DNA of 64,000 bases from Chiloscyllium plagiosum. Its lineage: Eukaryota. Shown piece after piece: positions 9,769-54,095 of the stretch. The stretch's first letter is position 1; each line of letters opens with the position of its first letter. The DNA lies in the NCBI RefSeq assembly GCF_004010195.1, contig NC_057755.1:6121474-6185473 (forward strand), given 5' to 3'. The notes under the pieces were generated by a model, which saw only the letters and a list, made by a program, of their open reading frames with translations, was not told the origin of the DNA and searched no databases. A program made the translations under genes and the position numbers.

Positions 9769-12704
9769 GTTTGTATCCTGGAACATTCAGGTGCCAGCCC
9801 TGGCGATCTCCGACCAACGTATCTCTGATATCTATGATGTCCCAATCCTATGTTCCGAACAATGCCTTGAGTTCGTCTGCCTTCCCTGTTAGGCCTCACA
9901 TTGAAGTAACTGTGTTTATTTTTTCAGTCCTTCCTTTTCTCCTTCTTTATTCCTGCCTACCCTGACTGTTCCATCCACTCCCTTTCCCAACTGTCCCAGT
10001 CTCAGATTGATTTGTTTGCTGATTGTCTCCCTTTTCGCAAACATTTCTTACCAGATAAACTCCTCCTGACCAGCTCTTGCAAATCATGCTGCCAATATAT
10101 TAGTCCCCTTCCAATTGAGATGCAGTCCACCCTTCTTGTACATGTTAATTCTACCACAGAAGAGATTCAAATGATGCAATAAAGGTGAACCCTTCTCCCC
10201 AACACCAGCTCCTCAGGCACACATTCATCTGTTCTATCCTCTTATTCATAACCTCACTAGTTCGTAGCACTGGGAGTAATCCAGATACTGCTGCTCTCGA
10301 CGAACACGAATTTAAATTCCCGCCTAACTTTCTATATTCTCTCTTCAGAGTACCATCCTTTTTCTGTTCGTATGTCGTTTGTTCCAATGTGTACAATGGC
10401 CTCCTGCTGGTTGCTGTCACCTTTGAGAACATTCTGCACCATGCCTGAAATCTCCTTGATCCTGTCACCAGGGACACAACACACAATTCTCTGCTGGTCA
10501 CAGAAACGTCTGCCTTCATTTCTGACTAGAAATTACCCTATCACAATTGATCGTTTGGAACCTGATATACTCCTCGTTACAGCAGGGATAGTCTCGATCT
10601 CAGATACGTGGCTATTCACACTAAATTCCCCTGAGAGTCCATCGTCCCCCATTGACCGTCAGCGTCAATCAACACAGATTGCGAGAAAGAAACGAAACCA
10701 TGCCCTGATCTGGGGGAACTGGCCACACGTCTTTCATTTTACTTCTACATTTTTCTAAAAACTTAAAAGCTTCTTCGAGTAGATGAACCCAGACAGTTCG
10801 GAAACTCGATGTTTCAAGCACAATAACAAAATGGGCAACACAATCATGATAAAGGACAAGTATCATCAAATACTGAATGCGGTCAATCAATGTTAGACGT
10901 TTGTGAACAGCAAAATGGGTCTATGTTAATCTAAGAGGTGAAACAAATGTTCAGAGAAAATGCCTGATGTGATCACATGATGATATTACAAGGCATCGTT
11001 TAAAAGTTTAAAGATCTGATATTTCTATGTTCATTTATAAAGCAGACGAGTTACAGGAAGGATCATGTAATAAGAATTTCTGTAGGTCCTTCATAGGAGA
11101 CGTCAATCCTGCATTAATAATGTTTCCCTTCGTTGCACGGGTAATTCTTCTGTTTTCAGTTCTGTAGCAATCAAATCTCTGATTGATATTTCTGTGAGTC
11201 TTCTTTTCTGATATTATACTTGCAAATTTGTTCAACATTATGTTTTCAAAATTGTTCTTTAAAGTCAGCAGAATATACCCTTGACATAATATCCCCTTTA
11301 TTTAGTTCACACTTCGCACACAGTCTCAATAGCGTACCTCCGATCAGGGTCAAAAGAATAAATAAAACATTTTTGAGCACAACTCTCACTAAAACAACTT
11401 ACACATCACAGACTCATCGATGCAACTCATCGATGTTCGCAGTTCCTTTTCTGAATGAGACCTTTAAATTTTTACACTGTGATTTTGTGTGGTCTCTCGC
11501 AGGGCTATTTTAGTTCTCGCAGAAGTAAATCTGCCCCAGGCATGTGTAGATAACCAGTTCCATTGATTGACCCAACTAATTCACAGAATCGCCAAACTTG
11601 TTACAAATCAGAATGACGGCGTACAGCCCATCGTGCTATATTTTCTTTGACGTTTTCATCTTAATAATCATAAATACAAGACAACGTGGCGAGAGCAATC
11701 CTCAACATGCCACAATGATAATCTGTGAGGGAAATATAAGTACGAGTGAAGACGAAATTAAATTTCATTGAAATGAAAGGAAATGATTGTGTTTTCTGTA
11801 TTTATATTCTGTATATACTTACGTCATTTAAAAAAATTACTTTATCAATGCAAATATGTTCATATATACATAATCACTAAATAAGTTCAGATCTGCAAGG
11901 CAGCAAATGGCAAAGTGGACAAACATTAGAACCTGAATCAATCCAACAAAACAATCTAAAGAATTTCTTACTTGTACAAGGTAATATTTGTACATATGTA
12001 ATTATATTCTATGTTAGATGTGTTTTGTAGAAATTTATAATAGTGAAATACTCTTGATTTTTGAATATAGTTGAAATTGCATGCATTTTTAACTTGTAAT
12101 TTTTGCTGAAAATTATATGTTTATGAAAAACTGTTTAATTTACATCTTCAAAAATGACGTTAACATTTATTCAAAACACAGAAGTAGATTAAAGAGTAAA
12201 TTTATTTTATACATTCACAATGATTTTTAATCCAAAGATTCGAAGTATGGGCTTCTGTCCAATCAGGACAATGCAATGCAGGATGAATGTGCTAGATAGG
12301 CAAGTTATGTTTCCTGGTGCAGTACAGTTGCCTGAAAAATCCTTACGAAGGAAACGATTGACAGGTAGACGAAGTGTCCTGAATAGGGAGGAGATTGAAG
12401 AAATGCATTCTGTGCAATTGTAATAACGGAGCTGGATGATGTACAGGCATGACTGGGGACAGAACAGAAGCACCACACAGAGTGCTGGATGTGTGATTTA
12501 TTGGTTGATAGATCGTTGTATTGGATGACGGCTGACTTGTCTCACATCAAAAGCAGGATTTCTTTTAAAAGTGCTCAATCACAACCGATTGAAATAAACA
12601 AATGCAAAAGCAGTGTCATTACAATTGCACTTACATTATTTGTAAATAATAACGTTCGGAAGATTTGCAAACAAGCTGCCTCTTTTCCATTTATACATGG
12701 CACA

Positions 12705-12710
12705 TTTATT
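12705..12710 (-). promoter_or_regulatory. Candidate polyadenylation signal of GPCR copy 1
   Basis: AATAAA on the minus strand ~260 nt after the stop; the same tttattcgaag context is kept in copies 2 and 4. Confidence 0.4.
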
Positions 12711-12968
12711 CGAAGTTCGTCTGAAAACGTGAAAATTGAACTCCTGCAGGAGTGAACATATCGAATATTTATCATCCTGACCGCTTCAAGGTAGATACAA
12801 TTCTGTTGCATCCGGTTAATTCTTACATACAATAGCATCACAACTTTGACCATGGTTTACTGCACCTCAGATGATGGACAAGTATGCATCCGGCTTTTAT
12901 GAACCAGAAACACTGTAACATAGACCAGTGGACTCTAATATGTGCAAGGTATTCATTCATTGTATAAA

Positions 12969-13840
12969 TTATGAAACCAGCGATCTCAGAGCGTTCTTGA
13001 TTTTCGCTCTGAACTTAGACTGAGTTGCTGCATAAACAAATGTGTTTGTGCAGCAACTTAAATTCCGCAAAATGAATCCAAAATCTTGAAATACTATTTC
13101 GGACTCTGTGTAGTATGTTCCTCCAAATGTGTAATGAAAGAAATTTATGATAAATATCAACCACAGAATTATGAAGCTACCAGATATGGTGAAAAGTAAA
13201 ATGACAGACTTCCTCCTACTTTCCATCTCTGGGTCGCTGTGCTTCTCTCCATTGCTGCGAGCTTTCAGCTCCTTACGGACACGGCTAGATATTAAAATGT
13301 GTCTTACTGTCAAAGCGTTTATCAACAGAATTAAAGCGAATGGGAGCAGAGGGGTGAAGGCTTTAGCAAAGCATTCATAACCCACCCATCCAGGATTAGT
13401 ATAAAAGCTCGATTTTACATAACAAAACCATGGTACATTGTCAACTATCTTGCCAGGCTCATAAATAAAGTAGTTGGGGATGCTTTTCAAGCACAGCAAA
13501 ATGCAAATTGTTGAAAGCACGACATTTGCTGTTGTCTCTGTGCAAAATCGTGTTCTTAGATTATGGCAACAAACAGCTATAAATCTATCGAAAGAGAAAG
13601 CGATGGTGAACCAAACACAGCAATCTATTATTGCAATGGACAAGGCATAGCGAGCACTACATGCAGGAGTGATGTCCAGGAAAAATAATGGGGCTTCATA
13701 GTAATAAATAACATCTACCAATACGACTTCAAATATAATGGCCAATAGATCTGCCAGCCCCATAGCGACCAAGTAGCGAGTAGTGCACTTAGAAACACCA
13801 CAATGTCCATGGGAGAGAATCATAACGGCCAGGAAATTTC
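12969..13840 (-). CDS. GPR139/GPR142-like class A GPCR copy 1, exon 2 (intact; 312 aa with exon 1)
   Basis: Open frame with rhodopsin-type motifs GNFLAVMILS, LVAMGLADL, FSFDRFIAVC, PEMESRRKS, LSCCTNTFVYAATQSKFR. Polypyrimidine acceptor ttcttcctttgtttctcacAG, phase 1. The ORF-track start at 13937 is a TTG inside the intron. Confidence 0.92.
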
Positions 13841-14086
13841 CTGTGAGAAACAAAGGAAGAAACGCTGGAATTATTGACCAAACATCTTCGTGGTCAGTAA
13901 GGCATGATGGGACGCGTCTATATGAACGTGAATGCAATCACCGTGTTTCAATCATTATGGAATATAAAAAGTTCACACTGAAACAAAAATAATTTCAGAA
14001 TCAATAGGTAGTCAGACAGTAGGGTTCGTTTGAATCGTCGAATCCTTCCTTGAAAGAGTGGCTAACTGACAGCGGGAATATACCAG

Positions 14087-14092
14087 TTTATA
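14087..14092 (-). promoter_or_regulatory. Intronic TATA-like element conserved among array copies
   Basis: TATAAA on the minus strand next to tgagtc; equivalents at 26117-26122 and ~48690. Confidence 0.3.
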
Positions 14093-14789
14093 ACTGAGTC
14101 CTGCTTTGATTTTCTAAGGTACAGACACTTTTGTGCTGTAAGTTCCTGTTAGAATTGTTTCCCTCGTCAAACTGAACTCCATGTAAAATTCTAACTGAAT
14201 AAAGGTTTCTGACAAAGACCAGAAACTGAATATCTCTCTTTCCAGCATGAGGCTCCTTTCTGAATTAAAATGTCTCAATTCCTCTGCTTTCAGTTACTTT
14301 GCGGAAAAAATGCAACAGACTTATGAATTTGGGAAGGAAAATACTCTGTAGTCCATGTGCCACCCCTCATATCTACACAAAACTGCAGAGCTATTGACTT
14401 CATCTCAGATGAAATTCTGCTTCTACTTGCAAACTGCCTTCAGTTCAAATGCCATTATTACCATTCCTCGTTATTCCAGGACTCCGACACCAGACATGAA
14501 TAAAACCTAAAAATCCACAAAAAAACTCGCTGATGGCGTGGAAAAACTAATAATTTAAACAACATTTAAACTACATATTCAAACTTACTTCACACCAGCA
14601 TCATGGTTCTGAGAAGCACATTAACTCACTCTCGCTCTCGGTCTCTCTCTCTGTCTGAATCTTCAATGTGCAGCGGACTTGACGACAGCTCATTCCCCCA
14701 AAGAAGTGTCAATCTCACCAGTATTCTGAACTGAACTCTAATTGGAGAGTTGTTTGAAGACATGTCAATGCTGTACTCCCTACGTAATT

Positions 14790-15170
14790 CTCATTGCCCA
14801 TTGGAGAATATCTACAATTCCCACATTGATGGGGACTCTGGAGAGCTGGAAAGATAAAACCTGCTGTCCTAACATTGGAGGAGAACCACCAATCTACTTT
14901 TTGATAAATGTTTATCCATTTACCACCCTGTAAGACAAAGGGAAATGAAATCGCCACATCAAATGAATTCACCGCAGGAAATGACATTATCCACCCAAGT
15001 TAACCTGAGAACAGAAATAGAAAGCGAGTCACTAACACCAGTGCTTCCCCAGAATGCTCACTGCTAAAGTTGCTTCATCTGCTGACAAAACTCTGAGAAC
15101 GATCCTTCCAGCCCAGTGAGCAAATTTACATCCAGAACCTCAACCTGAGCTGTAAATCTTCTCAAAACAA
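14790..15170 (+). mobile_element. Penelope-like element 3' fragment
   Basis: Ends in ccttccagcccagtgagcaaatttacatccagaacctcaacctgagctgtaaatcttctcaaaac, the same terminus as the element at 60598-61763; absent from the paralogous positions in the other array copies. Confidence 0.7.
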
Positions 15171-16004
15171 CCTCAATGTTTAGCCATCGAAAGTCCTGCT
15201 GATGATCGCCTGTCCTTATTGCTCGTAAAACTTTCTGTATCATGGAGAAACATTGCCATTGAGAAACTGGATCATTCATGGTCTTATTGAATTTACTGTA
15301 ATTCCAAGGGCCAGGCTGTTACCTCATGTTAGTGTATTTTCCGTTCAACCATTTACCAATAGTGAAAAGGTAAAACACCCGTAATGCTACATTGATCCTA
15401 CAAATGATAATTACTCTGCTGTGCATACAGTAAGCAATGTGATATTATTTGTTATGTCGTCATTTGCTACCATGTTATCATATGGTCGTAAGACCAAGAC
15501 TCCCGTTAGATTTTAGATATCGTCTACATTCCCAAATAGTTGCTAGTCATTCAACATACTATTGTTTTCTGATGTCTCCCATACATAATTTTCAAATTAA
15601 GTTCACTTTGAAAACTCTTCCACAAGACATTGCTGCAGACGAGGCGACTTAATGAACGTTTATGCAGATGCAACATGGCATACCAACTTTATACTCAATA
15701 CCCGACCGATGCAGGCAGGCACGCTATGTTCTTTCTTTATGACCCCATGTCCTCGTGTTACTAATTTCAGGAGCAATTTCGCAAAAAAGAATGACATCTC
15801 AAACAAAAGTGATAAGGCATTCGGGAAGTTCCAAGGAAGTACACCCTTGAAATGCATGTTTCTTGATTTGTGGAACAAGCATAAAAACCCTCCTGATATT
15901 TCATAACGGCAAACATCCAATAAAGACAGTTGAGATGGTCCAGGTAATTGTAGCCCCGAGAGATTTACGACTGTTGTATGACAATTTTTGGAAGGGATTA
16001 AAGG

Positions 16005-17150
16005 AGATAATGGACTTCAGCAAAGCCTTTGATAAGGCTGTTGGAGAAAATGCAGAGGCATGGGATTGAGGGTGATTTCGCAGTTTGGATTCGAAATTGG
16101 CTTTCTGCAAGAAGGCAGTGAGTGCTGTTTAATGGACAATATTCAGCCTGGAATTCGTTTCCTGGTGGTGTACTGCAAGGGGCTGTTTTGGGAGCACTGC
16201 ATTTGTCATTTTTTATAAATGACTTGGAAGCAGGCCTCGGTGGATGGGTTAGTCAGTTTACCGATGACACTACAGTCAGTGGAGTAGTGGACAGTGTGGA
16301 AGAATGTTGCAAGTTGCAACGGGACTTGGATACACTGCAAAATTGGGCTGAAAGGTGGCAAATGGAGTTCAATGCAGATAAATGTGAGATTACTCACTTT
16401 GGGAAGAATAGTAGCGAGGTAGAATACTGTGTCTGGAGAAAGATTCTTGATGGTGTGGATGTGCAGAGGGATCTTGGAGTCCATGTACATAGATCCCTGA
16501 AAGTTGCTACCCAGGTTGATAGTATTCTTATGAATGCATATGGCGTGTTAGCTTTTATTGGTAGCGGGATTGTGTTAGAGAGTCGTAATGTCATGATGCA
16601 AATATGCAAATATTTTGTCCAGCCGCATTTTGAAAATTGCATGCAGTTCTGGTCGCCCCAATACAGGAAGGATGAGGAAGCATTGAAAATGTTGCAGAGG
16701 AGATTTACCAGGATGTTGTCTGATCTGGAGGGAAGGTCTTATGAGGAAAAGCTGAGAGACTTGAACCTGTTCTCATTGGCAAGAATAAGACTAAGAGGGG
16801 ATTTGATGGAGACATACAAGATGATCAGAGAATTAGATAGGGTCGACAGTGAAAGTCTTTTTCCGAGGTTGATGACCTCAGCTTGTACGAGGGGGCATAA
16901 ATACAAATTGACGAATGATAGATTTAAGACAGATGTCAGAGGCAGGTTCTTTACAGAAAGAGTGGTAAGGGTGAGGACTGCCTTACCTGCTAATGTAGTC
17001 AAATCAGCCACATTAGGGAGATTTAAACATTCCTTAGATGAGCACACGGATGATGATGGGATAGTGTAGGGGAACGAGATGAGAGTAGTTCACAGGTCGG
17101 TGCAACATCGAGGACCGAAGGGCCTGTTCTGCGCTGTATTGTTCTATGCA
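16005..17150 (+). mobile_element. CR1 LINE 3' part with a 315-codon open RT/C-terminal frame
   Basis: GVLQGAVLG, QFTDDT, LQRDLDTL..WAERWQMEFN, RLRGDLMETYK; 3' tail gttctatg. Confidence 0.93.
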
Positions 17151-17336
17151 ACAGAACATTTTCGATCTGATCTTTACTTGATGTTACAAATCTCAAGGAA
17201 CGAGATGAGAGTAGTTCACAGGTCGGTGCAACATCGAGGACCGAAGGGCCTGTTCTGCGCTGTATTGTTCTATGTTCTTTGTTCTATGCAATAGAACATT
17301 TTCGATCTGATCTTTACTTGATGTTACAAATCTCAA
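17071..17336. repeat. Tandem duplication (~126/140 bp) of the CR1 3' tail plus flank
   Basis: ggaacgagatgagagtagttcacagg...gatgttacaaatctcaa occurs at 17071-17196 and 17197-17336. Confidence 0.93.
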
Positions 17337-17429
17337 TCGCTCAACAACAAACATTGAAAAATGCAAATGGAGAAAATTCATAGAAGCCTTACAATGGGGA
17401 AACAGGTCAATCGGCCCATCAAGTCCACA

Positions 17430-17672
17430 TCAAGGCTGAGAGAATTGGGTCTGTTCTCACTTGAGATTGTTACGGATGTGGAATGCCCTGCCTGCCAATG
17501 TAGTTAACTTAGCCACATTAAGAAGATTTAAACAATGCTTGGATACGCACGTGGATGACAACGTGATTTTGTCGGGGAATGGGCTTAGAGTAATCCACAG
17601 ATCGGTGCAACATCGAGGACCGAAGCGTCTGATCTGCGCTGTTTTGTTCAATGTTCCATGTTATATGTTCTA
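17430..17672 (+). mobile_element. CR1 LINE 3' terminal fragment
   Basis: WNALPANVV..ATLRRFKQCLD and the same 3' UTR as the 16-17 kb copy. Confidence 0.85.
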
Positions 17673-17817
17673 AAATGGCAGTTAATCTCTGTGAACCTTG
17701 AGATCCTCCTGGAAAGCATTACTAGCAGTGCAACATAATTGCTTTGTCAAAAAACGTTTTAATGAGAATTAAATCACAAGACCAGTTTCCACCAATGCGA
17801 ACATTGGTAATGTTCTA

Positions 17818-18492
17818 TGTTATGATAAATGTCGAATATAACAATATTGGGTTGATGAAGTTTTGATACTGTTCATTTACCAAGGTTATGTTGTCTATTG
17901 TTTTTTTTTAGAAGAAGTTGTAAAAACACATGCTCGCAAAATGCTGTACTTGGATGTGTTTTAGGGCGAATTTTATTCTAGCTAACAGATACTGTCTTAG
18001 GCAAAACGCTTTGAAGATTTTGTTTTAAAAAACTTGTACATTAAAAGTGGAGTGACCGGTATTTACAGCTCAGCTTTTCCCTGAATTGCTTTGGTTTTGG
18101 TAGTCTAGCTATTCTCCTAAAGTAGTCAGGCAATTTTGAGACTGCTGATCCAAGAAACAGCAATGTGAAAGGTATGCCATGTTCTCACTCCAACATCTCT
18201 TACTCGAAGGTTCTGTGTTTGATTTTACTCTTTGTGACAAGGTGTATTTACGGGGTGTGTTGCAAGTATTTGGAACTGCATCACAAAGTTGGAACAATCT
18301 GTTGTGTTTTCGTATAGGTTAAATTATTCAGTATACTGTTCTCTTTTAATTGTGTTTCATTCAAAGAACTTGTAAATAAATTATGTTTTGTTTTAAAACT
18401 AAGTGGTTTGATCACTTGCATCTCTTCCGGAACAATCACATTACATTGTTTAGAACAAGTTGAAACGTTAGGATCTGGCCTGGTCCATAACA
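17818..18492 (+). mobile_element. Solo LTR
   Basis: TGTTATG...CATAACA inverted termini and an internal AATAAA; 3' end shared with the LTR at 35062-35660; absent in paralogous units. No clear TSD. Confidence 0.75.
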
Positions 18493-19732
18493 ATGGGATT
18501 CATGTTTTTGCCCTGAAATAATTAGATGTTACATTAATGGAAACATCTGTGTTTTCCCATTTAGATCTGTGACTCCGGCCTAAGGGTTCACGATGTTTGG
18601 AGAAGAACTTGACTGCAGCCTAAAATTAATCAGAGTGTATTTATTTTTCCTGGTGCGTTGACATTTCAAACAGTGTTTTGATTGTTTTATCACAGTCTTT
18701 CTTTTCCATTGAGATCTCTTTGGTGTTGGGCAAATATTTGCAGGTGGAGTTTAACTTAGCTAAATGTGAGGTTCTTGTATTTTGGTAAAGTGAATTAGCG
18801 CAGGCTTCAGTGGAACATTACTGAACAGAGAGCACAGGGTGCATTTTCGCAGTTCCTTCAAGGTAGTTACATGAAAAGCCAAGGTAGCGAAGAAGGCATT
18901 TGGTACACTTGTGCCTGCCAGGACAAACGGTAAGCAAGAGCAATTTCTGAGTAAGATTCTACATGATCACGGGGCAGAGGAAGACTGGAGATTTTCCCAT
19001 ACGTTTCAGAATTAGCTCAAGGAGGCATTTTTTGGGAAGCTTTGATCAGGCCACCACTGCGTGGAAAGCACACATGCGCAGTCCAACTCAAATCTTTGTC
19101 TATTATCTATGCATTGTCCATTGTCAACTACTAGTTCTTGACATCCCGTGTATGGAAATTAAGTGACAGGGCTATTAGTTTTATCGTGAAAACAATGAAG
19201 CTACATGAAAGATCCACAGTTTATTTTAAACAACTGCACAAGAAAATACAAGTAAAAAGAAACACGCAGCGGAATAGAATGAAAAAACTGACTAAAACTT
19301 AAGCTAGTTTATAACTGAAATATTTTAGTTAATTCCAGTGGGAAAACAAACCTTATTTCAATTGTACTTGGATATTTGCAACAATCCAACAGCACTGCAG
19401 ATAATTATTTGCAACAATAAAACTTACTTTGCATAAACCTACAGGAACAGAGGATTCAAACAGCCTTCCAAAGAATGCGTACATTAGCTGATAAGCATTT
19501 GCACACCGCACAGAGTTCAACAAACGGCAATACATCAATGCCAAAAAGCATTTTATCTGCAACTTGTGATTGAATATCACCTGAAGAGGTGGAATAATAT
19601 TACAGCGACAAATCAACTCATTTGATCAAAAACTACCTGCCTGGTGTAAGGTCTGTGCACTTGTGAATTAGCAAATAACTTTATCAGGAACAGTGGAACG
19701 TTTAGAAATTTTCGATTAGTATTCTCACTTAC

Positions 19733-19799
19733 CAAGCAGACCAACTACAACAAGGATCATGTAGTACACTTTCTTGAAATCGTACATTTGAAAAGCCAT
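19733..19799 (-). CDS. GPR139/GPR142-like GPCR copy 1, exon 1
   Basis: gaaATGG start, in-frame stop upstream, MAFQMYDFKKVYYMILVVVGLL then G|GTAAGT donor. 67 nt, phase 1, matching the exon 2 acceptor and completing TM1 (..VGLLGNFL..). Confidence 0.88.
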
Positions 19800-19880: not shown

Positions 19881-19887
19881 ATTTATA
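19881..19887 (-). promoter_or_regulatory. Candidate TATA box of GPCR copy 1
   Basis: TATAAAT ~80 nt upstream of the ATG; mutated at the aligned position in all three pseudogene copies. Confidence 0.5.
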
Positions 19888-20829: not shown

Positions 20830-21940
20830 TCATAGAGTCAGAGAGTCTTTGAGACGTACAAAACAGAAACAGATCCTTTGGTCCAACTCTCCCTTGCCGA
20901 CCAAATATCCCAAGGCATTCGAGTCCCTCATGTCAGCAACCGACCAATATCCCTACAAAGCCGTCCAATTCATATACGTATCCAAATGCCTTTTAAATGT
21001 TTCAAGTGAACTAGCCTCCACCACTTCCTCTGGAAGCTCATTCCATGCACATACCACCCGCTGCGTGAAAACGTTGGACCTGAGATCTCTTTTATTTCTT
21101 TTCCCTCTCACTCAAAGCCGATGCTCTGTAGTTCTGGACTGCCCCACCACAGGACATGACTTTGCTTATTTATCATATTCATGCCCCTTATGATTTTATA
21201 AAACTCTACAATGTCACCTCTCAGCTTCCGACTCTCCAGGGAAAACAGTCGCAGCCTATTCAACCTTTCCGTATAGCTCAATTCCTCCAACCCTGGCAAC
21301 ATCCTTGCAAATCTTATCTGAACCCTTTCAAGGGTCACAGTTTGCTTCCGATAATTCGGGAGACCAGAATTGCCCGCAATCTTTCAAAATGTCCTATACA
21401 GACGCAAGATGACCTCCTAAATCCTGTACTCAATTCTTTGACCAATAAAGGAAAATGTACCAATCGCCTTCTTCACTGTCCTATCTACCTGTGACTACAC
21501 TTTCAAGGAGCTATGAAACTGCACTCTAAGGTCTCTTTGTTCAGCAATACTCCCGAGCACCTTACCATTCCAAGTCTGCATCCTGCTGAGATATGCTTTC
21601 CCAAAATGCAGCAGATCACATTTATCTGAATGAAAATCCATCTGCTAATTCTAAGCCCATTGGCCCATCTGATCAAGATCCCATTGTAATCTCAAGTCAC
21701 CTTCTTCGCTGTCCACGACGTCTTCAAGTTTGGTGTGATCTGCAGCTTACTAACAACAACACCTCTTAAGCTTGCAATCACGTCATTGATATAAATGACG
21801 AAACGTAGTGGAACAAGCACTAATCCTCTTGACACGTAATTGGTCACAGCTCTCCAATCTGAAAAAAACAACCCTCCATCGCCACCGTCTGTCTTCTACT
21901 TTTGAGCCAGTTCTGTATCCAAATAGCTAGTTCTCCCATA
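20830..21940 (-). mobile_element. CR1 LINE 3' part
   Basis: LERVQIRFARMLPGLEELSYTERLNRLRLFSLESRKLRGD. Confidence 0.9.
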
Positions 21941-24900
21941 GCAAGTTCTATCATAGAGACATTTTAATTTTCTCTGGAGTAATTTGAAAACAAATAATTC
22001 TGGGAAGCCAGTAACGTTAGCATCAATTAGCTAATAGAAAATATTTTAACCATCATCAGGGGTAAAACAACATTGAAGTTATGAAAGAAACTATTTGGAA
22101 AATAAGCATCCTATAAAGTTTGAACCTATGTTTGGAATCTAAAGAAAGATAGCAACAAGGTGAGAGGATTGATATAACATATTTTCAACAAGTTCAGCCG
22201 TTTAACATTTAACCGCTTATTATGCAATATGTGGCGATATTTCACGTGAACTGCATTGCACTCATTTTTATTATTACCTTCCTTAGGTTACCTTAGCCAA
22301 CCAGAAAATTTATCCTACGTTTGAACAAAAACTATAATAGTGTGGGGAATTTAATTAAACTGACAGACTGCCATTGAAAAGTTGTTTCTCATTGAGAAAA
22401 ACTCGACTGCACGTTTGACAAAACCTTAAATTAATTCACTGACCTACATTAACATTTGCTTTTGCATTATCCATCATCACCTGATAATTCTTGATGTTGA
22501 CTAGAAGCTGATTTTCCTTAAACTCACTTAAAAAGCTGTAATTACTTTAGCCCCCTGGTGTTTTCTGCTTCATAAAAATAAAATGAAAGATTCCGTCCAA
22601 TGAAACAGAGAAGCACACGAGAAACAAAGGCAATTTCACGAAAGTACCATTTCATCACTGTTAATGGATTGCACTCAGAACCATTATAAGCCGATGGATA
22701 TTCTGAAATGACAAGTCCAATGTGGTCAGGTCTTTTACTCCCAACAGTGAAACGGGCTTTGTAGATCCACGTGAAAATATATTCACAGGAATGTCTCCCC
22801 TCAGTAATTCTACGTCACTTGTTGTCCTTTACAGCACGACATCGCCTTGCACTCAAGATGGTAAATCAAAGTCAGAAAGTTTGTGACCATAAAACTATTG
22901 TTTAATGTCAACTAAAAGGAGGAACAAAAGTTCAGAGAGAAAAAAGATGAAACAAATGAACGTCTGAAGTTATGGCGATGTAACATTATCAGATACCTTT
23001 GTCAAAAAGAAGACCTGAAATGTTTATATTAACTTACAAAGATGACCAGTTACAGCAAAGCTCATGTAGTACAATGTCTGGTGTTCCACCATATGCGAAG
23101 TTCTTCCTGCATTAATAATGTGTCCCGTCTCTGTGCAAGTAATCCATCTGTTTTTCACATCTATGGCAATCAAATCCCTGAGCCCCTAACTGATACATTG
23201 ATGAGACTTATTTTGTAACATGGAAATTGCAACATTGTTCAACATTATGGTTTCCAAATCTATCTTTGAAGAAGCTGTAAGCAGAAGAGAAATGACTTTG
23301 ACGTTACTCCACTTCAGTTACTCGGCAGTTGGTACTCAGCCTCAATCGCATAGTTCTGCTCAAAATCAAAAGAACAAAAAGCACTTTGAAGCTCTACTCT
23401 CACAGCAACCACTCCAACGTCACAGACTCAACGATGCAACTCCGTTGTTCTCATGTCCTTCTCTGAGTGAGACTATTTATTTTCTAAATTGTGAGTTTGT
23501 ATGGTCTCTCGTTATCCCACTTTAGTTTTCTCTGAAGTAGGGCCGTTTTAATTTTCTTTGAATTAAATCTGCGACAGCGAACTGTGAATAATCGGTTCCA
23601 GTAATAGACACAGTTCGTTCACAGAATCGTGAAAATAGGTGCAAATTCGAATGAGGTCACTCAACCAATAGTGTTTTTTTTAATCGTACGGGATCCTCTC
23701 AGTAATGACAATAATAATCCAACATTCCGAGACCAGTCTTCGTGATACCACAATGATAACCGTTGAAGGAACTATACGTAATAATGAAGACAACAATACA
23801 ACTTCATTGACTGAAAAGAAAATGATTATTTTCTATATTTATATTCTGTACTAATTTTATTTATTTCAAAAAGATACATTATTAATAAAATTATGTTTGC
23901 ATACATACATAGTCACCAAAGAAAGTTCAGTTCGGAGCAATTGCAATTGAAGATTAGGGTAAACGTTGGAGTACCACTCGATATAGCAAAATAAATGAAA
24001 AGCTACTTGTAAAGATGCTATTTGCATTTATATGTTTACATACTATGTTAATTGCAGTTTTACATTAGTTTTACTGATGGTTCAATATTCTTAGAATTTC
24101 ATGTATTTTAGTTACGTAAAACTTTTTTTCTGAAAATGATATGAATTATAACAAGATATTGTATGTAATTTCTAAAGAAGTGATTTTAACATTCAATCCA
24201 AACACGCAAGTGTCTTAAACAGGATATGTCTTTACCTGATTTGCAATGATTTCCAAATGAATGATGGAAGGGTGGCCTCCTGACCAATCAGCGCTATGCA
24301 GAGCAGAGTGTCTATATGTCCGTCGGCGAAGTCATGATTTCTGGTGCAGTGCAGTTGCCTGAACATTCCTTCCCGACGTAAATACTGACTGATGCACCGA
24401 GATTCAGAATAGCGAGAAGATATTGCAATCAATCTGAAATAATGTTTTTCAACACAGTTGTTACAATGGAGATGGGTGATGTACAGGCAGAACTCGTGAT
24501 GGAAACGAAGGATCACACAAAGTGCTGGATGTGTGGATTGCTGTTGATAGATCGTTGTATTGGATGATGGCTACCTTGTATCACTTCAAACATAAGGTGG
24601 TAAAATTACTAAAAGACATTCTTTTGAATGAAACCAATGCAGAGGCCGGGAATAGTGTCACGACTGATGAAGCTAAAATTATTTATGATCAAATGACTCT
24701 TGAAAATTTTGGAAAGTTGTGATTCTTCTTTACTATTTATTAATGAAACATTTATTCGAAGAACATCTCAAACCGTGAAAATTGAAATTGTGCACAAGTG
24801 GTCATTGCAAATGTGTATCGCACTGATCAGTACGAGATGCCCTCAATTTACTTCCTGCCCAAGAATTTCTACTCTCAATGTTGTCACACCTTTAACAATA

Positions 24901-35029: not shown

Positions 35030-35061
35030 AGGTAGATAATTCACAGATTCACAAATTTGTT

Positions 35062-35660: not shown

Positions 35661-37976
35661 CGTTACAAATTATAATGAAGGCATTCAGCCAATCATGCTT
35701 TCTGTTTTACTGTGCATTATCATCTTACTGTTAAGAATAGCAATACCATACATGCTACAACAATAACCTGTGAAATAAATATTAGCAAGATAACAAACGA
35801 AAATATAACTCCATTGAAAGGAAAGAAAATAGTTGTGTCTTGAGTATTTATGTTCTATATTTTTTGGCTTTGTTTCAAAAAATAGATTTCATTATTAAAA
35901 TGTCTTTACATACATGCATAATCACTGAATATGTTCTGTTGTGCACAGCAGCATATGGAGAAGCAGACAAACATTGAGGTTTGATACAAGAGAACAGAAC
36001 AGCCAAAGCTATTTCTTGCTTCTACAGGATTACATTTATATATCTATATTCATATTCTGTAGAAAAAGCATATTGCAGTGAATTGTTCATTGAAATATTC
36101 TTGATTGTTCAAAATTCTTGGAAATCAATGCATTTTCGTTTTGTAATGGTTGCCTAAAATGATATGAATTATGAAAACTGGTTTAAATTGCATTTTTCAG
36201 GATGTGACGTCGACATTCATTTGCGACCCAGACGTGGGTTAAAGAGGATATCGATTTTATTAATGTTAACAATATCTAACCAAATGATGGAAGGGCAGAT
36301 TCCTGATCAAATCAGAGCAGTGCAGTGAAACATAGATATGCCTGTCAACCAAGTTGCGATTCCTGTTGGAGTATAGTATCCTGAGAAATCCTGAGGGAAT
36401 AAACGATTGACAGATAGACTGCGCTTCAGTATAGAGGAACAAGACTGCAAATAAAGTAAAGGAATTTTTTTGTATAATTGATATAACGGAGCTGAATGAT
36501 GTACAGGCGGAGCTAACGATGGAAAGGAAGGAACTCAGACTACTAAATGTGTGATTTTATGAGTGAAAGATCATTGTTTTGGATGATGGCTGACTTGTAT
36601 CACTTCAAACAGAGGATTCTTGGCAATGTAACTGTTTTTATGTAAAATGCTCAAAGAAATTGGATGGAAAAGCAAACAAGGGGAAGGCATGGAAATATGT
36701 CTCCAAATGAACTGAATTTTTAACAGTCAATGTATTGTTGATGAATTTCACTGTTTGAATTTTTCTGCTGCTTATGTATGACATACTTATTCAAAGCTGA
36801 TCTAAAAAGGGGAAAATTGAAACTTTTCAGTTATGGCCATTTCAGTGTGTAACATCCTGACCTTCACTAGGTGCCCTAAATTTACTTCCCGCCCAGTAAT
36901 TTGTTTCAGAATGCCGTTCCAACATTAAACACTGTAACTCTTAATATGGACAGGCATAAATACAGCATCCAGTAACTGAAAACCTTGTAACATCACACCA
37001 TGAACTCTCGGATGAACAAGTTGTTGGTTCCTGCCACAAAATATGGAACGAGAGATGTCACAGCATTCTTGAGTTTCTTCCTGAACTGAGACCGAGTTGC
37101 TGTGTCAATGAACGTGTTTGCGCTGCAACTTAAATTCCACATCATGATTCTGAAATATTCAAATGTAATTGTCGTATTGGTGGATTATGTTCTTCCAATG
37201 GAATCAAGAAAAAAACTTATGACTAATACCAACGTTAGAAATATAAGGCTACAAGATATGTTGAAAAATAAACTGACAGTCTTCTTTCTGCTTTCTGTAT
37301 CTGGTCACTGTACTTCTGTCCATTGTTGCGGAGTTTCAGCTCCTTACGGGCTCAGCGGTCTGATAAAATATGTCTGAGAGTCATGGTGTTTATCAAAAGA
37401 ATTGAGACCAGTGGTATTAAGGCTTTCGAAAAGCACTGATAAACATCCTGCCCCCTCCCTCCATCCAGCATCGTAAAAGAGCTTGGTTTTATATTGCATA
37501 TTCATAGTACATTGTCAAGAATCTTTCCAGGTTTATAAATATAATAGATGGGGAAATTTTACAAGTAATATCGAATGCAATGGCAAAACGACAGAGAAAT
37601 CCTATGACTGCATCACACAAGGAATTGCCAACATAACAAACAGGAGTGATGTTCAAGAAAAACAGTGGATAATCATGATGAGAATTTATCTTTTTCATTG
37701 TGACTTCAAATATGATGACCGGGAGATCTGCCATTTACATTGCCATGTGGCATCGAGTGCTTAAATTGGAAATGCAGCAGAGAATTATAACTGCCAGCAA
37801 ATGGATGAGTGGGAATGAAAGGAAAAGATGCTGTGAATTAATTTAGTGAACATCTGTCTCCAATACAGTCAGTATAAATGGAGCACCAAATATGGGAAAG
37901 TACAGGTATATTTTAGAATTTCTGCGAGTGTGAAATGTGAAAAATTTAATGCCAGATCTAAAATAATTGCAGACTT

Positions 37977-40900: not shown

Positions 40901-41471
40901 GTCCTTCCAGATACAATAGAAAGTCGCCTGCACTTCATCCAAACTGATCTATTTCATTTACTGGTCTCTCTATATTGGAAAATGCAGACTCAGGGATTGG
41001 TTCACACAGCATCTGCGTTCCGTACGCATCAACCAACCGCACCATCTGGTTAAAACCCATTTAAATCCTCTTCCAACATCCACGGCGACCTGCCCATCCT
41101 TGGCCTCCTCCACTGTCAGAGTAATACCAAATGGAAACTGGAGGAATAACACTTCTCATTTATCCTGTGCAGACGTGAAGCCCATTAGCTTTAATATTAA
41201 CTTCTCCTCTCCTCCCTGAATTGGCATGACCTGTCAATCTTCATACTCAACTATCTGCTCCACCCTTCCGACTGATGAACCACAATAACCCTAAAGGCAT
41301 CCACCTATCACCAGCCCACCTACACTGCCCCCACCCCACCCACACCCTCCATATAATTGTGGAATCGCCTCACTCTCCCAGTCTCCCAGATTCGTCTCCA
41401 AACGTTGACTTATGTGCTCCTTTGGTGCTGTCTGACCTGCTGTCCTTTTCAAGCTTCATATCTATTGACTT
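37977..41471. mobile_element. Outer inverted (palindromic) Penelope-like composite
   Basis: agtcaatcgatgtgaagctggaaaagga (~38010) is the reverse complement of tccttttcaagcttcatatctattgact (~41445-41470); 13 bp TSD-like taatt(g/t)cagactt at 37964-37976 and 41472-41484. Confidence 0.75.
38239..40160. mobile_element. Inner head-to-head pair of Penelope-like (GIY-YIG C-terminal) fragments
   Basis: Minus arm HPVAKHFKSPSHS..VLGLLH..EEERLIFRL; plus arm HPVAQHFTSP..LIVCLGSLQPEGIYVDF; termini are reverse complements of each other. Confidence 0.8.
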
Positions 41472-42908
41472 TAATTTCAGACTTAGAAGGTTTTCGCAAG
41501 TGTACAGGAGTTGAATACTGAAATGAATGGGCCTAGTCTGAATCTGTTCCTGATTGAGAATGGTACAAGTACAGGCTAATACCGGAGTCATGAATTGGAT
41601 TTTCTGAGGGGTAGAGATTTCCTCTTCTGTATGATCCTGGCAGTTAATTCCCATTTCAAGTCGAACTTCTTCACAGACTCCTCGTGGAATAACGTTTTCT
41701 CTCCTTCATCAGATACTGACTAACACTTTTCGTGGTGTTAGCTCCCAAACATGGTTCATTACCATCTACATTTCGTTCGCAACTCAGAATCGAATGCTTG
41801 ACATGAATGGATGGCTTAACTCTTTACTTTCGACGTTTCCATGTCTGCTTCCAAGTTTCACACAGGATGTAACCATGTGTCTCCCGTGTATCACGTATTA
41901 ATCGGAGGTGCATTAGGATGAAAACCATTTGAGTCTGAAATATGCTGATGGCGAATTTACTTATCATTCTGTTCTCACCATGAATGCCTTTCACTCGTTT
42001 AGAAAACAGCATCAATCTAACTTTGCTTAAAAAGACTCGGCTTAAGAAAGATCGAGTAATTAACTCTGCGAGGAAAATTATTCTTCTCAACTTTTTATTG
42101 TGTGTGCAGTTCCTTTAAACAATATAGAAATCACGAGTTCTTGAATCGACAACAACATGGGAGCATACTTTCATTTGCAAGCCTCTTTCAGTGGAAAGGT
42201 TATCATTTCTACACCTTGTGGTCCCATGACTCAGAGGTAGGCTGGAATACAAAGCAAAGAATCTCCAAAACCTCTCTGATGGTATGGAAAATAAAATATT
42301 TTTTCCAACGACAATAGAACCATCTGTTCGGCCTACTTCCCCACCGTTATCATTACTAGAAGCATCACCCAAGCACACGATGCACATCTCATAGAGTGTG
42401 GTTTCGAATCAGGCGAATGCCGTACCACCTGCTTACCTATCTTTGTGCCGCGTCCTGACCTGGCATATTAAGGTTACAAATATGTTATGGGTTAGCCGAT
42501 GCAAAAGAAAATGCCTTCAAGTGCCTCCAGATCTCAGAGAGGTATGTTAGTGATGCAATGTGGTTTACAATTAAGTTAGGGGTTGGACAATGCAAAAGAA
42601 AATGCCTCAAGTACATCCAGATTCAAAGATGCAAGGTGATTTTCAGTTTCTAAGATTAGCGTGTCAAGCTAATTGTGCATATCCACAATTTTAACCAAAA
42701 ACATGGAGACACAGGGAGCTGGAATAAGATGGTGTTCCAATGTTGGAATTTAGTGTTTATGAAAGATTGAAGGAGAAGGGCCAATCCTGTATTCATGAAT
42801 GTGTAGTAATAAAATGTTCCAATTGACGATCATCCTTCCTTCTTCTGAAAAAAAAACCTTATGTTTCATGAAAACGGATTGGGATTGAGAAAGGGTATCA
42901 TTTCATGG

Positions 42909-45900: not shown

Positions 45901-48900
45901 TCCTTTGTACACATCTACAGGAATAGATGTTTCCAATAATATCTTCTGCATAATGTCTATATGATGACCTTTTCAACTGGAATGGCAGTAAATAATTGCC
46001 GGCAATCATTTGAACTAAAGAGTGATAAAATGCCTTCTGCAGAGGTGGAATAAAATTACAGAGGAAAATCAACTCCTTTGATTCTATAACTGACTACCTG
46101 AAATAAGGTCTGTGCAGTTGTGATCGGCACGATACATTATCATTTGTAACATTTCCCATTTATTTGATTATTACTCTCACTGACCAAGCAGATCAATTGC
46201 AGGAAGGGATCATGTCATGCAATCTCGTGGGTCACACATTTTGAAAGTCAAATCTATGTTAATATGTGCAGCTTTGTCCTGCAAATAATCTCTTCTTATT
46301 TACTTATTTGACTGTAAAAACCCAGGACAAATTCATTTTTAATTGTGAAATTTCCAAGTCGATATTTTGCTAACAACAATTTCTGGCCAATAGTGTGTCG
46401 CCGGACGTTGATGCTAACGAAATTTCAAAGATGCATTCCATTCTGTTTTGCAGTTGAGGTAGCTCGTGAGAACGTCATGTTTTGGAAAGAAAACGAAAGT
46501 AAACAGATTATGACACGATTAGACTCACTTTCATTGCAGTTGACACATTCTGCTGTGGCACAATCGCAAAACTCTGACAAATTTTAAAAAAAGATGAAAT
46601 TTCAAAATAATGCTGTTGTTAGTATATTTCTCGTCGTTTCTGCTATGCCCTTCATTGATATTGAAATGCTATATTGTGATAATGTATGTCCTCTCTTAGA
46701 ACAGTTCTAATTTTCTCTGGAATAAATCGACCACAAATATCTTTGGGAAAATGGTACGTGAAGAGTTACACAACGGTAACACATTAAATAACACAAGAGC
46801 TTTTCACGACCATCACCGAAAACCATATTATTGAGGTTCTAAAAAAGTTTGGAAAATGGAACCTAATGATGAAATAATAGACTTATGACCAATCAAGGCA
46901 GCGCAGTGCAGGATGTATATGCCAAGTGGACAAGTTCTTTTCCTGGTGCAGTCAAGTTGCCTGAACAATCCTTATGGAGGAAAGGATTGATAGGTAGACC
47001 GAGTGTCAGTGGGGTGTGGGGGTGTGGGGGGGAAGATGGCGACAACTGTACACAGGAAGTTTTCTGTATCGTCGATATATCACAATTGAATAATGCACAA
47101 GCAGAGTTGGTGACAGAATGGAAGGACCTCGCAGAGTGCAAATGTATCATTTATTAGTCATGGATCATTGTATTTGATGATGGCTGACTTGCATCACTTC
47201 AAACATAAAATTGTAAAAACGCTCAAGGATAACGGATAGAAAGAAACCAATGCAGATGCAGGAAACATCCTCAGTCAAAATGAAATTCATTTTTTTTTTG
47301 TAATCGAATAACTCCTGGAGATTCCTGTAATTTGTGATATTTCGTTTCTCTTTATGAATGACACGTTTATTCGAAGCTCATCTGAAAGGCTGAAAATTGA
47401 ACATTTGCAAGAGTCAACATTTCCAATAGTTATTGTCCTGACCAGAACGAGATGTCTTCAATTTTGTCCTAGCTCTGTGATGTCTATTCGCAATTCTGTC
47501 ACAACTTTGACTATGGTTTACTGCACCTCATTGGGTGTTCAAGTATTAAATCAGCATTTAGCAATTGGAAATTCTACAACACAGATGAATGCACTCTCAG
47601 ATGTATATGTCATCCATTCATTGTATAATTTATGAAACCAGAGATTTCAAAGTGTTCTTGATTATCACTCTGAACTTTGACTGAGTCGCTGCATAAATAA
47701 GTACATTCGTGCAGCAACTTAACTTCCACAACACGAATCCGAAATCTTGAAATATCAATTCGGACTCACTGTGAAATTTTCTTCTGAAGGCATAACGAAA
47801 GAAATTCATGATAAACATCAACGACAGATGTATAAATCTTCCAGATATGTCAAAAAGTAAAATGCCAGACTTCCTCCTGCGTTGCATCTCTGTGCCACAC
47901 TAGTTCTTGCCATTGCTGCCGGCTTTCAGTTCCTTATAAACTCGGCTGGATGCTAAATTGTGTCTTACAGTCAAAGCAATGATCAAAAAAATTAAAGTGC
48001 ATGGGAACAGAGGAGTTAAATGTTTATCAAATCTCTCATAACCCACCCAACCAGCATCAGAATAAAAGTTCAGTTTTGCACAACAAAGCCATGGTACATT
48101 GCTCACTATCTTCACATGTTCAAAAATGGAGTAGATGCGAGTGCTTTTCAAACAGAGCAGAATGCACGTTGTTGAAAGCAGGATAGCAGCAGATTTCCAC
48201 TTGCAAAATCGTGCTCTTAAATTAAGACAAGAAAGAGCTACAAATCAATCAAAAGAGAAGGCGATGGTGAAACAGACAGAGCAATCTATGCCTGCATCAC
48301 ACAATGTATCATGAGGACTACACGCAGGAATGATGTCCATGAAAAAAAAATACCGGAGCTTCATAATAATACATAACCATTTTCAATATTACTTCAAATA
48401 TAACAACCAGTATTTCAGACATTGCCATAGCCATGAGGTAGCGAGTGGTGCGCTTTGAAACACCACAATTTCCGCAGGAGAATATCATAACCACCAGCAA
48501 ATTACCGGTGTGAGAAAGAAAGGAAAATACATTGGTATTTAATCAGCGAACATCTTGTATAACTACACAGTAAGTATGGCATGATGAAGCCCCGATTATG
48601 GCAGTCAGATTGTCGGGTTTGTTTGAATCCTTGAATAGATGAGCCTCCACTGCATTGGTGCCTGACTGTGAGCAGGGAATGTTAACGCTTATAAATTAGT
48701 CGTGGTTAGAAATCTCTAAGCTACAGTTACATTTTCATCTGGATGAGCCTGGTAGAAATTTTGCCCATTTGGTCCTGAACTTCTTCACAGACGCCTCACA
48801 GAATAAAGCTTTCAGTCAGAGATCAGACAGTAATTAACACTGTTCACAGCATTAGACTCCAGTCAAAATTCACTTCCCTTTCCAGCACAACTCAAAATTA

Positions 48901-49019: not shown

Positions 49020-49380
49020 ACAGTCACAGAGTCAAAGAAATGTACAGAATGGAATCAGACCCATCGGTCTAACTCGCCCATGTCAACCAAATATCCCAAT
49101 GCAATCCAGTCCCACCTGCCACCACCCTGCCCATACCCCTCCAAACTCTTCTTATTCATATACCCATCCAACTGCCTCTTAAATGTTGCAATTGTAGCAG
49201 CCGCCAGCACTTCCTCTGGCAGATCATTCCATACACGTATCACCCTCTGCATGAAAACGTTGCCCCGTGGGTCTCTTTGATATCTTTCCCCTCTCACCCT
49301 AAACCTATGGCCTATCGTTCTGCACTCACCGACCACAGGGAAAAGACTTGGCCTATTTATCCTATCCATGCCCCTTGTCA
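49020..49380 (-). mobile_element. CR1 LINE 3' terminal fragment
   Basis: RGMDRINRPSLFP..GHRFRVRGERY..QRVIRVWNDLPEEV. Confidence 0.88.
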
Positions 49381-51784: not shown

Positions 51785-52090
51785 ATGAGATGAGGACATC
51801 GCTGTCTATGCCAGCATTTCTTGTTCAAGTGGCAGTTCAGAGCCAACTACCTTGTTGCAGTTCTGGAGTAATATGGAGGCAAGACCAGGTAAGGATGACG
51901 GCTTCTTTCCCTGGAAGGGATCCGTGATCCAGATTGTTTCTTTATTTAAAAAATCACTTGCGTTCATCAGGCATTCCAGGTTTTTTGTTGAATACGAAAT
52001 TCGCTGTTAGCCATGGAGAAACTCGAACACAAATGCTCAACTTTCCTGGATAAACAACCCAGTATAGATACCACTAGTCCATCGCCTTCT
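51785..52090 (-). mobile_element. DeuSINE (SacSINE1-like), old
   Basis: Minus strand has a tRNA-like head (tagtggtat...gttcgagt), then tccttacctggtcttgcctccatattactccaga and aaatgctggcatagacagcgatgtcc, recalled as Deu-domain SINE features. Confidence 0.65.
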
Positions 52091-54095
52091 CACGTAAACA
52101 CACCCCATGCTTTTTGTTTGTGTCGACCAAGCATAAGAATTTCAGAATATTGCAGGGTGGAAACCAGCATGCTTTTGATATGATAGAGATGTCCCTGCAT
52201 ATGGTCTGAAAATTAACATTCATGTAATAGAGGGCCAACAGCAGTTAATTCCTGTGAACCTTCGAACAAGTTTGGAAAGTATTAATGTAACTGCATAACA
52301 ATTAGTCTCATCAACAAATATTTCAGTGTGAAAGGAATCTGAAGACCAGGTTGCACTCGTGATAATTTCTGTATAAACTAAAGGTGATGTTCTATGACAT
52401 GAGTCGTGCCTCACGTAATGAAACAGTGTCGATGTGATCGATGTGAAGCTCTGAAATGAATGAATGTCGCAACCGTGGAACCATCTCTGTTTTCTCATTT
52501 GCGTCTGTGATTCTACCCTTTAGGTTCACGAAGAATGCAGAATATTTTGGCTGCAACACAAAATTATTCAGGGCGTAAATATTCCTGGTGAATTAAAATG
52601 CCAAAAAGTAAGTTCGATGTTGTACAATATATTATTCTCCGATGGAGCACACTTTAGCTTTAACCAACGTGTGGCAAATCGAGTTTAACGTAGCTAAATG
52701 TGTGTTGCTGCAATTTAGTAAGGCAAATTAGCGCAGTGTTCTGGAAAATATTACCCAAAAAATAGAGCTTATGATACCGAATCACACTTCCTTGAAAGTG
52801 GAGTCACAGGTAGACAGTGAAGCGAAGGAGGCATTTGGTACACTAGCACTTTCCGATACTGATAGAACACTTATGTAATTCTAAGTAAGATTTTTACATG
52901 ATTGATGAAAGAAAAATATTGGGCATTTTCCAACAAATTGCTAACTTACACCATGGAAACAGTTGTTGAGAACCTTGGATCAGGCCACAGCTGTTTGCAA
53001 AGCGCACATGCTTTTTGCAACTGAACTTTTTGCCTAATGGCTTTGCATTATTTATTATCACTCTCTTTTTTCTTGATATCCCGCCCAAGGAATTGAAGTG
53101 AGTGGGCTGGTGGTTTTTGTGGGTCAGTGAAAGCCATTAAGCTAGATGAACAATCAATGGTTTATCTTCAATAACTGCAGAAGAAAAGATAAATAAAAAA
53201 ACGATACATGCAGCACATAATATAAAACGTCTGACTATTTTATTATTGAACTACTTAAATCGTTCCAGTTCGAAAACGACACTTACTAAAATTGTACATA
53301 GACAGGTATTCACAATAATCTGGATAGTTGTTATCAACAACGATTCTTACTTTTCACAAGTATGCAAGAATAGATATTTCCAATGGTATTCTTCAGGATG
53401 TCTACTTTATCTGATACCCATTTCAACACTGCAAAACATTAACCGAAAGGCAGTACATCATACACAGAAAGCAGTTAAATCCAAGCAGTGATGAAACATC
53501 AGCTGAGGAGGTAGAGTAAAATTACAGAGACAAGTCAACTGATTTGATCCAATAACCGAATGGCTGAAATAACATCTGTGCAGTTGTGATCAGCACCAAA
53601 CATTATCTGGCACAGTCTAACATTTACAAATGTTCGATTATTACTCTTATTTACCGAGCAGACCAACCAGCGCAAGAATTATGTTGTGCACTTTCCTTCG
53701 ATTGTACATTTGAAAAAGCCATTTCTACGTTAATAAGTATTGCTTTGTGCTGCTATTAATCCCTTCGTAGTTAATTCTGTGATGATAAAATCCAAGTACC
53801 ATTCATTTAAACCTTGTGAAATTTCCATGGTGGTGTTGTGCTTGTCACAATTTCTGGCCAATCGTGAAGCCCAGGATGTTTGCCATGATTAAATCTGAAA
53901 GATTAAGTTGCTTTTGTCTTGTAGGCGAGCTAGCTCATGGCAACTTCTAAAGAAAATGGAAATAATCCGTTTATGACATGTGTTAGATTGCATTTCATTG
54001 AAGTGGCACATTGCACTCAGACACAATTGCACAACTCTGACATTAAGGTCTATTAGATAGGGAATGTAGCAAATGATGTTCAAGACATTTGGGGG

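Follow-up and report, generated by a model that had tools for sequence, protein, structure and literature searches.

A tandem receptor array in Chiloscyllium plagiosum belongs to a large, apparently undescribed family of GPR139-related orphan receptors in cartilaginous fishes

The stretch analysed here (the window) comprises 64,000 nucleotides of the Chiloscyllium plagiosum genome (contig NC_057755.1, positions 6,121,474 to 6,185,473) and carries a tandem array of two-exon genes, one intact and three decayed, for a predicted class A (rhodopsin-like) G-protein-coupled receptor (GPCR). A four-copy array is ordinary by itself, and its significance lies in the family that it exposes. The array appears to represent a single local cluster within a large class A GPCR family; an orphan lineage with kinship to GPR139 would have given rise to this family by expansion in cartilaginous fishes. 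This orphan radiation is apparently undescribed, and its proteins are already deposited in RefSeq under an automatic name. Considering how variation is distributed over the receptors, we give about even chances to the view that the family is a receptor repertoire which combines a shared signalling face with varied pockets and serves a sensory or barrier surface in detecting many small ligands.

A large family in cartilaginous fishes

The preliminary description of the array, made from the letters of the window, had proposed a cartilaginous-fish receptor family and had allowed that it might turn out to be small. In a protein search, 975 of 1914 candidates passed E<=1e-5. All of the 120 matches listed were elasmobranch (from sharks or rays), and almost every one bore the label 'probable' or 'putative' GPR139. 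Among 50%-identity representatives, a search found 106 at E<=1e-30, many being fragments, and 18 of the 19 divergent representatives that were looked up came from named cartilaginous fishes, among them the chimaera Callorhinchus milii. Judged by its sequences, the family spans elasmobranchs and holocephalans, with deep subfamilies common to sharks, rays and a chimaera; the proposal of a cartilaginous-fish family has held up, and the family is not small.

The horn shark, Heterodontus francisci, accounts for 87 of the 120 matches listed. Almost all of these proteins (86 of 87) are still distinct at 95% identity, and 44, counted by hand, are encoded on one 74.5-Mb contig. Cartilaginous fishes have been described as GPCR-poor (PMC8455134, in its available text); this picture needs qualifying, whatever the receptors sense, since a single shark has no fewer than 86 distinct members of the family behind one automatic label. 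Many database models miss the genuine short exon 1 or are joined with sequence derived from long interspersed nuclear elements (LINEs; e.g., P0029, P0057, P0061 and P0124), and some family members bear other names, such as capa receptor-like or vasopressin V2 receptor-like. Incomplete, fused or misnamed models may have hidden the size of the family.

Scans of metagenomes for DNA of intact paralogs found none in 409 stretches. Of 73 further stretches, 20 held distant relatives only (25-34% identity), four of which were taken as tree outgroups. The metagenome contigs L001-L018 encode relatives at 25-31% identity, and the four with a translation have frames of 282-295 codons without a stop and fall into one clade, which suggests another expansion elsewhere.

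Receptor class and relation to GPR139

Copy 1, the intact gene, matches the Pfam domain 7tm_1 with 60.6 bits against a cut-off of 30.5. The structure model of its ortholog P0001 (predicted local distance difference test score, pLDDT, 88.7) consists of seven long helices and helix 8. Its first helix begins at residue 2, in agreement with the minimal N-terminus pointed out previously, and a fold search with Foldseek gave TM-scores of 0.65-0.79 to class A structures. Copy 1 keeps the motifs DRF, W6x48, Cys3x25, the cysteine of the second extracellular loop (ECL2) and N..Y, while P6x50 and P7x50 are replaced in copy 1 and most paralogs (generic residue numbers were set from motif anchors and alignments to GPR139). 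On sequence and a predicted structure, the domain match, the helices and the fold identify copy 1 as the gene of a class A GPCR, whose activation motifs are kept in part.

The nearest receptor of solved structure is GPR139, and no grouping with another GPCR family, which the preliminary description had considered, was found. Human GPR139 was the sole solved-structure match of copy 1 in phmmer (33.6 bits). It came first when the family profile was compared with solved structures (103.3 bits, followed by the neurotensin receptor with 79.3 and CCR1 with 72), and it was also the top solved-structure match of P0238 (70.4 bits) and P0229 (53.2 bits), two orphan proteins of the lineages called clades B and A below. 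By fold, GPR139 holds only rank 4 among similar Foldseek scores and is not ranked above other peptide receptors. The name 'GPR139-like', given to the array earlier, is apt insofar as GPR139 is the nearest solved receptor. An expansion of GPR139 or GPR142 themselves was not shown: copy 1 scores 110.2 bits with P0229 (clade A) and 100.3 bits with P0238 (clade B) versus 33.6 bits with GPR139, a distance that rests on bit scores, as the trees held neither GPR139 nor GPR142. We assign the family to a GPR139-related vertebrate orphan group that is distinct from GPR139, and the gene is not GPR139 itself.

Taken literally, the database label would make these proteins genuine paralogs of GPR139/GPR142 and sensors of tryptophan and phenylalanine, which we consider very improbable. 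The rank of GPR139 among solved structures speaks for the label, as does W6x48, present in 87 of 87 horn-shark paralogs; the higher scores of the two other orphan lineages speak against it. So do the residues of the pocket. Mutagenesis of GPR139 pointed to F3x33, H5x43, W6x48 and N7x38, and modelling added R6x51 (available text of PMC5430874). At F3x33, H5x43, W6x48, R6x51 and N7x38, copy 1 has I, A, W, F and F, i.e., one of five is kept, and among the 87 paralogs 72 keep one, 14 two and a single one three. Because the aromatic-amino-acid site is not kept, the GPR139 ligand is not transferable to copy 1. A further point against the label is Cys3x25, which is present in copy 1 and absent at the aligned position of GPR139. 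All 18 clade-A proteins keep three of the five ligand residues and have Lys at 6x51, and it may be that such a GPR139-like pocket was ancestral and that the shark family has since departed from it. GPR139 (PDB 7vug, 9m42) and GPR142 resemble copy 1 in the class A fold of seven transmembrane helices (TM1-TM7), in W6x48 and in a degenerate NPxxY motif. Unlike GPR139, the family of copy 1 has the TM3-ECL2 cysteines, lacks P6x50 and counts tens of copies per genome.

Orphan relatives and phylogeny

Clade A (P0229 and P0276-P0295) is an amphibian/sturgeon orphan that provides the best non-chondrichthyan match (31%, 110 bits), with one match per species over the 21 non-chondrichthyan rows of 25. It shares with the shark family a DPE motif in the third intracellular loop and differs from it in a near-invariant pocket (0.12 bits of entropy), which keeps F3x33, W6x48, N7x38 and a basic residue at 6x51 like GPR139. 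A route to the ligand is opened by this difference, as the amphibian relative keeps a GPR139-like pocket and the shark paralogs vary theirs. Clade A is auto-labelled 'probable GPR139' yet distinct, and is a candidate for deorphanisation.

Clade B comprises the coelacanth protein P0238 and its kin (P0300-P0417), with 28% and 100 bits to copy 1 and an equally short N-terminus. Unlike the shark family it is a conserved gene with a conserved pocket, and it has separate shark orthologs (P0300, P0303 and P0307). Clade B occurs in sharks, bony fishes, amphibians, turtles and squamates, and the named rows of the 120 matches listed contain no mammal or bird. It is probably the 'GPR210' that is named beside GPR139/142 in the available text of PMC6504862. 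Two clade-B models are fused to TMEM183A, hinting at a neighbour gene.

Trees were built from 89 rows (quick) and 48 rows (careful), picked from about 420 proteins. The shark expansion falls on one side of a branch in the 48-row tree (94/90), and the invertebrate rows of that tree fall outside the vertebrate clades. Clade A was preferred as the sister of the expansion in both the 48-row tree (92/98) and the 89-row tree (SH-aLRT 99). Two alternative sister placements survived approximately unbiased (AU) tests with 25 rows (p 0.16 each), and the sister position of clade A is the preferred yet unsettled one.

The array and its intact copy

Self-BLAST resolved the window into four co-oriented, minus-strand two-exon gene units. 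Where exon, intron and flank can be aligned, which amounts to 4.6-5.6 kb per pair, two units are 66-69% identical; these totals include a few LINE-to-LINE matches. The exon-2 starts at 13840, 25848, ~37805 and 48505 are separated by 12.0, 12.0 and 10.7 kb. The exon-1 starts are less regular (19799, 30604, 46251 and 53722; intervals of 10.8, 15.6 and 7.5 kb). The layout given in the preliminary description (four co-oriented copies about 11-12 kb apart, with exon 1, intron, exon 2 and flanks in common and only copy 1 intact) is reproduced by these data and by the lesions of copies 2-4 described below. No additional exon 2 was found in the window, either before 11 kb or beyond 54 kb.

Copy 1 has an open frame of 312 amino acids and a GT-AG intron. 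Its 67-nt exon 1 (19733..19799, minus strand) starts with ATG, encodes the outer half of TM1 and ends in a phase-1 GTAAGT donor. The 5.9-kb intron (13841..19732, minus strand), of which homologous stretches occur in the other three introns, closes with a CAG acceptor. The 872-nt exon 2 (12969..13840, minus strand) carries the rest of the seven-helix domain, helix 8 and the stop codon in an open frame. GPR139 is a two-exon gene as well, with an intron in TM1. The top database match to copy 1 is P0001 of Chiloscyllium punctatum (312 amino acids, 85% identity), which matches it in length, N-terminus and early stop; the N-terminus of P0002, an intact protein of C. plagiosum, also agrees. Because P0001 has the identical N-terminus and early stop, neither the gene model nor the short C-terminal tail of copy 1 is an artefact. 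A lesion as the cause of the short tail was ruled out, as P0001, P0002 and copies 2 and 4 end at the identical place. Upstream of the ATG, a hexamer that we take to be TATA-like (19882..19887, minus strand) is a putative promoter element without counterpart upstream of copies 2-4.

Decay, relic exons and the birth and death of copies

The three other copies are pseudogenes on the minus strand. Copy 2 has GTG for ATG and a lost donor in exon 1 (30538..30604), and seven frameshifting indels and two stops in exon 2 (25014..25848). In copy 3, the start is lost and exon 1 (46185..46251) bears indels; exon 2 (37041..37805) has a large TM3-TM4 deletion, five stops and 11 indels, 10 of them frameshifting, a count that hinges on the alignment of the deletion. 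Copy 4, whose nearest kin is the intact P0002, has one extra base in exon 1 (53655..53722), has lost its acceptor AG and carries one frameshift and two stops in exon 2 (47630..48505). A frameshift at codon 50, common to copies 2 and 4, was tried as a sign of duplication after death and rejected, because its site is a T-run and copy 2 groups with copy 3 in the tree.

Overlooked so far were three further exon-1 relics that stem from another type of paralog. They are found near 11.07, 23.07 and 32.14 kb; each sits downstream of one of copies 1-3 and brings several hundred bases of common upstream sequence. With approximate ends and on the minus strand, they lie at 11039..11094 (upstream homology, degenerate donor), 23038..23092 (ATG and GTAAGT donor kept, own exon 2 not found in the window) and 32111..32160 (decayed). 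Splicing of the 23-kb relic to exon 2 of copy 1 was ruled out, since a stop arises at the junction. Because three units carry a neighbouring paralog's upstream region and exon 1 as passengers, unequal crossing-over is the likely mechanism of duplication, and one break within the neighbour's intron would leave such passenger relics.

The 48-row tree unites P0001 and P0002 with the four copies of the window in a single clade (100/100). Within it, the intact P0001 is the partner of copy 1 (100/99) and copy 3 that of copy 2 (95/91), while the pseudogene copy 4 pairs with the intact P0002 (98/95; branch 0.41 versus 0.037). At diagnostic sites copy 4 follows P0002 in 17 cases and copy 1 in 6, and P0002 may be a close paralog rather than a strict ortholog of copy 4. 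Because P0001 and P0002 are each the sole member of their own 90% cluster, the two Chiloscyllium species may have retained different members, a picture that annotation gaps could mimic. The ratio of nonsynonymous to synonymous divergence (dN/dS) is 0.45-0.60 between copy 1 and the pseudogenes and 0.63-0.85 among the pseudogenes, at dS values of 0.36-0.60. These values mark the duplications as old and followed by decay, and copy 1 as one constrained member. The alignments and trees show that entire two-exon genes were duplicated in tandem, that the copies decayed independently and that different copies survive in different sharks, in keeping with the birth-and-death array proposed beforehand.

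In the sequencing runs X1-X3, intron and exons are covered alike and the splice joint is not among 15 of 73 joints; the runs therefore look like DNA, either from this species or from a very close one. Among the exon-2 differences listed in them, 2 of 3 are synonymous, too few to count.

Variation across paralogs and possible function

The 87 horn-shark paralogs (mean identity 76%) show an entropy of 1.39 bits in the pocket (25 sites), 1.14 in the extracellular part and 0.43 in the intracellular part (p 6e-7 and 5e-17). With regard to pocket and intracellular face, both ortholog sets give the reverse order: entropies in pocket, extracellular and intracellular part are 0.12, 0.37 and 0.63 for the 18 clade-A orthologs (identity 79%) and 0.60, 1.19 and 1.06 for the 47 clade-B orthologs (identity 61%). 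The pocket of both ortholog sets is also more conserved than other outer-helix sites (p 0.001 and 0.002). N-terminal columns are unreliable, many database models being incomplete there, and the finding of 85 distinct pocket strings among the 87 paralogs is not used as evidence, since its 12 sites were chosen after seeing variability.

Such a pattern fits a receptor repertoire with diversified ligands, and the repertoire-like character suspected at the outset is upheld by the difference between pocket and intracellular face. Members of the family would share one conserved intracellular face and probably one G-protein pathway, while their varied ligand pockets would allow them to detect jointly many small external or barrier-surface ligands. 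From the wider kinship with GPR139 and FMRFamide receptors, the likeliest ligands would be amino-acid derivatives or short peptides, and the likeliest site a chemosensory or barrier epithelium (olfactory organ, skin or gut).

Several observations weigh against a repertoire of this kind. Compared with other outer-helix sites, the paralog pocket is only slightly more variable (p 0.09), so that much of the pattern is explained by relaxed constraint across the outer half. A significant extracellular excess is absent from the local subclade, both for copy 1 versus P0001 (0.17 versus 0.13, p 0.39) and versus P0002 (0.23 versus 0.16, p 0.21), and in the third comparison among copy 1 and these two closest intact relatives (p 0.76). 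Pocket sites were taken from generic numbering and not from a ligand complex, and the 87 paralogs are the top matches of one query, not the full repertoire. The olfactory-type O/E motif is absent upstream of all four copies, and the 2% analysed of one single-cell RNA run (X5) yielded no read for exon 1 or exon 2; this run is of unrecorded tissue and was treated as uninformative.

The weak pocket excess and the plain local subclade would suit a largely non-adaptive origin, in which repeat-rich shark DNA promotes unequal crossing-over and an orphan receptor with an endocrine or neural role gains surplus copies, which drift, retain their fold temporarily and then die, pocket variation being a mere sign of relaxed constraint. 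The death of three of the four copies, with three more relic exons between them, agrees with such a course, as does the growth of batoid tandem clusters with genome size that is described in the available text of 10.1101/2025.06.08.657570. Pure drift, however, would erode the receptor evenly, whereas the intracellular face stays at 0.43 bits over 87 paralogs; the deep subfamilies common to sharks, rays and a chimaera and the intact 85% relative of copy 1 in Chiloscyllium also stand against it, and we consider this origin clearly unlikely.

A repertoire could also serve leukocytes or barrier immune cells and sense peptides and metabolites derived from microbes or damage, as formyl-peptide and MRGPR receptors do in mammals. 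Clustered copies, rapid turnover, a variable outer face and a conserved inner face fit immune sensing equally, and the lack of the O/E motif is in its favour. The available text of the whale-shark paper notes that cartilaginous fishes lack MAS1 and its relatives, whose role would be left open. The nearest characterised kin, however, are of neuronal or neuropeptide type and not chemoattractant receptors (GPR139 103, neurotensin receptor 79 and CCR1 72 bits), and we regard an immune repertoire as rather unlikely.

Comparison with known receptor repertoires

The OR, TAAR, V1R/ORA, V2R/OlfC and TAS2R repertoires resemble the shark family in their clusters, pseudogenes, lineage-specific turnover and variable ligand face. 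The family is of separate origin: Pfam gives 7tm_1 only, and none of OR, TAAR, V1R, V2R and TAS2R occurs among its 60 best solved-structure matches. Cartilaginous fishes have 6-13 OR, 3-5 TAAR, 2-4 ORA and 8-43 V2R genes according to the available text of PMC10116579, in which the horn shark is not named. These ranges sum to 19-65 known olfactory genes, fewer than the 87 horn-shark proteins found here. It is conceivable, and put forward tentatively, that the family is an extra, independently evolved chemoreceptor repertoire, which in some species would number about a hundred class A GPCRs per genome or more, derived from a GPR139-related orphan that is low-copy in bony vertebrates. If true, this repertoire could exceed all known olfactory families of cartilaginous fishes together and would partly explain why sharks combine large olfactory organs with small known receptor sets.

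GPR139 and GPR142 belong to a wider clade of receptors like those for FMRFamide, myoinhibitory peptide (MIP) and sex peptide, which includes invertebrate expansions (PMC8514136 and PMC12208981, in their available texts). In the look-alike clusters of the Atlas, 7TM_GPCR_Srw is found on 16-69% of the members. Nematode srw chemoreceptors and expanded FMRFamide-like receptors of snails reportedly set a precedent for the shark family; they share the wider clade of GPR139/142 but are independent expansions.

No description of the shark expansion was found in full-text literature searches, to which most subscription papers were outside scope, so that prior notice is possible. Literature that joins GPR139 with sharks, judged by title and abstract start, contained nothing about an expansion. 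A survey of elasmobranch tandem clusters (10.1101/2025.06.08.657570) does not name the family in its available text, figure labels and supplements being outside scope, and the available part of a 2025 review on GPR139 makes no mention of sharks. GPR139 terms gave no match in the supplements of PMC10115646, PMC11406177, PMC12361510, PMC5278576 (searchable files) and PMC8455134 (12 of 24 files).

Repeats and other features of the window

Private insertions in each copy had been noted before, and all four units were found to contain unit-private segments of at least 300 bp, two of them with Pfam RVT_1. One of these two is a LINE reverse-transcriptase fragment with an adjoining high-copy repeat of very high contig depth in the copy 1 intron (16035..17518, plus strand), and the other a LINE insertion in the downstream flank of copy 3 (32646..35629, plus strand). 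A LINE-like insertion lies between the flank of copy 2 and the upstream region of copy 1 (20830..21944, minus strand). An insertion private to the copy 3 intron (37876..41571, no strand assigned) harbours, within 38184-41167, two inverted-repeat pairs of ~830 bp at 70% and ~250 bp at 68%.

Adjoining the upstream region of copy 4, a decayed retrovirus-like stretch spans 54050-57900 on the plus strand; its short frames resemble pieces of reverse transcriptase, integrase and envelope in their motifs, and Pfam confirmed none of the six fragments. At the other end of the window, a recent direct duplication of ~940 bp at 93% identity is found at 6241-8155 inside a LINE-like fragment.

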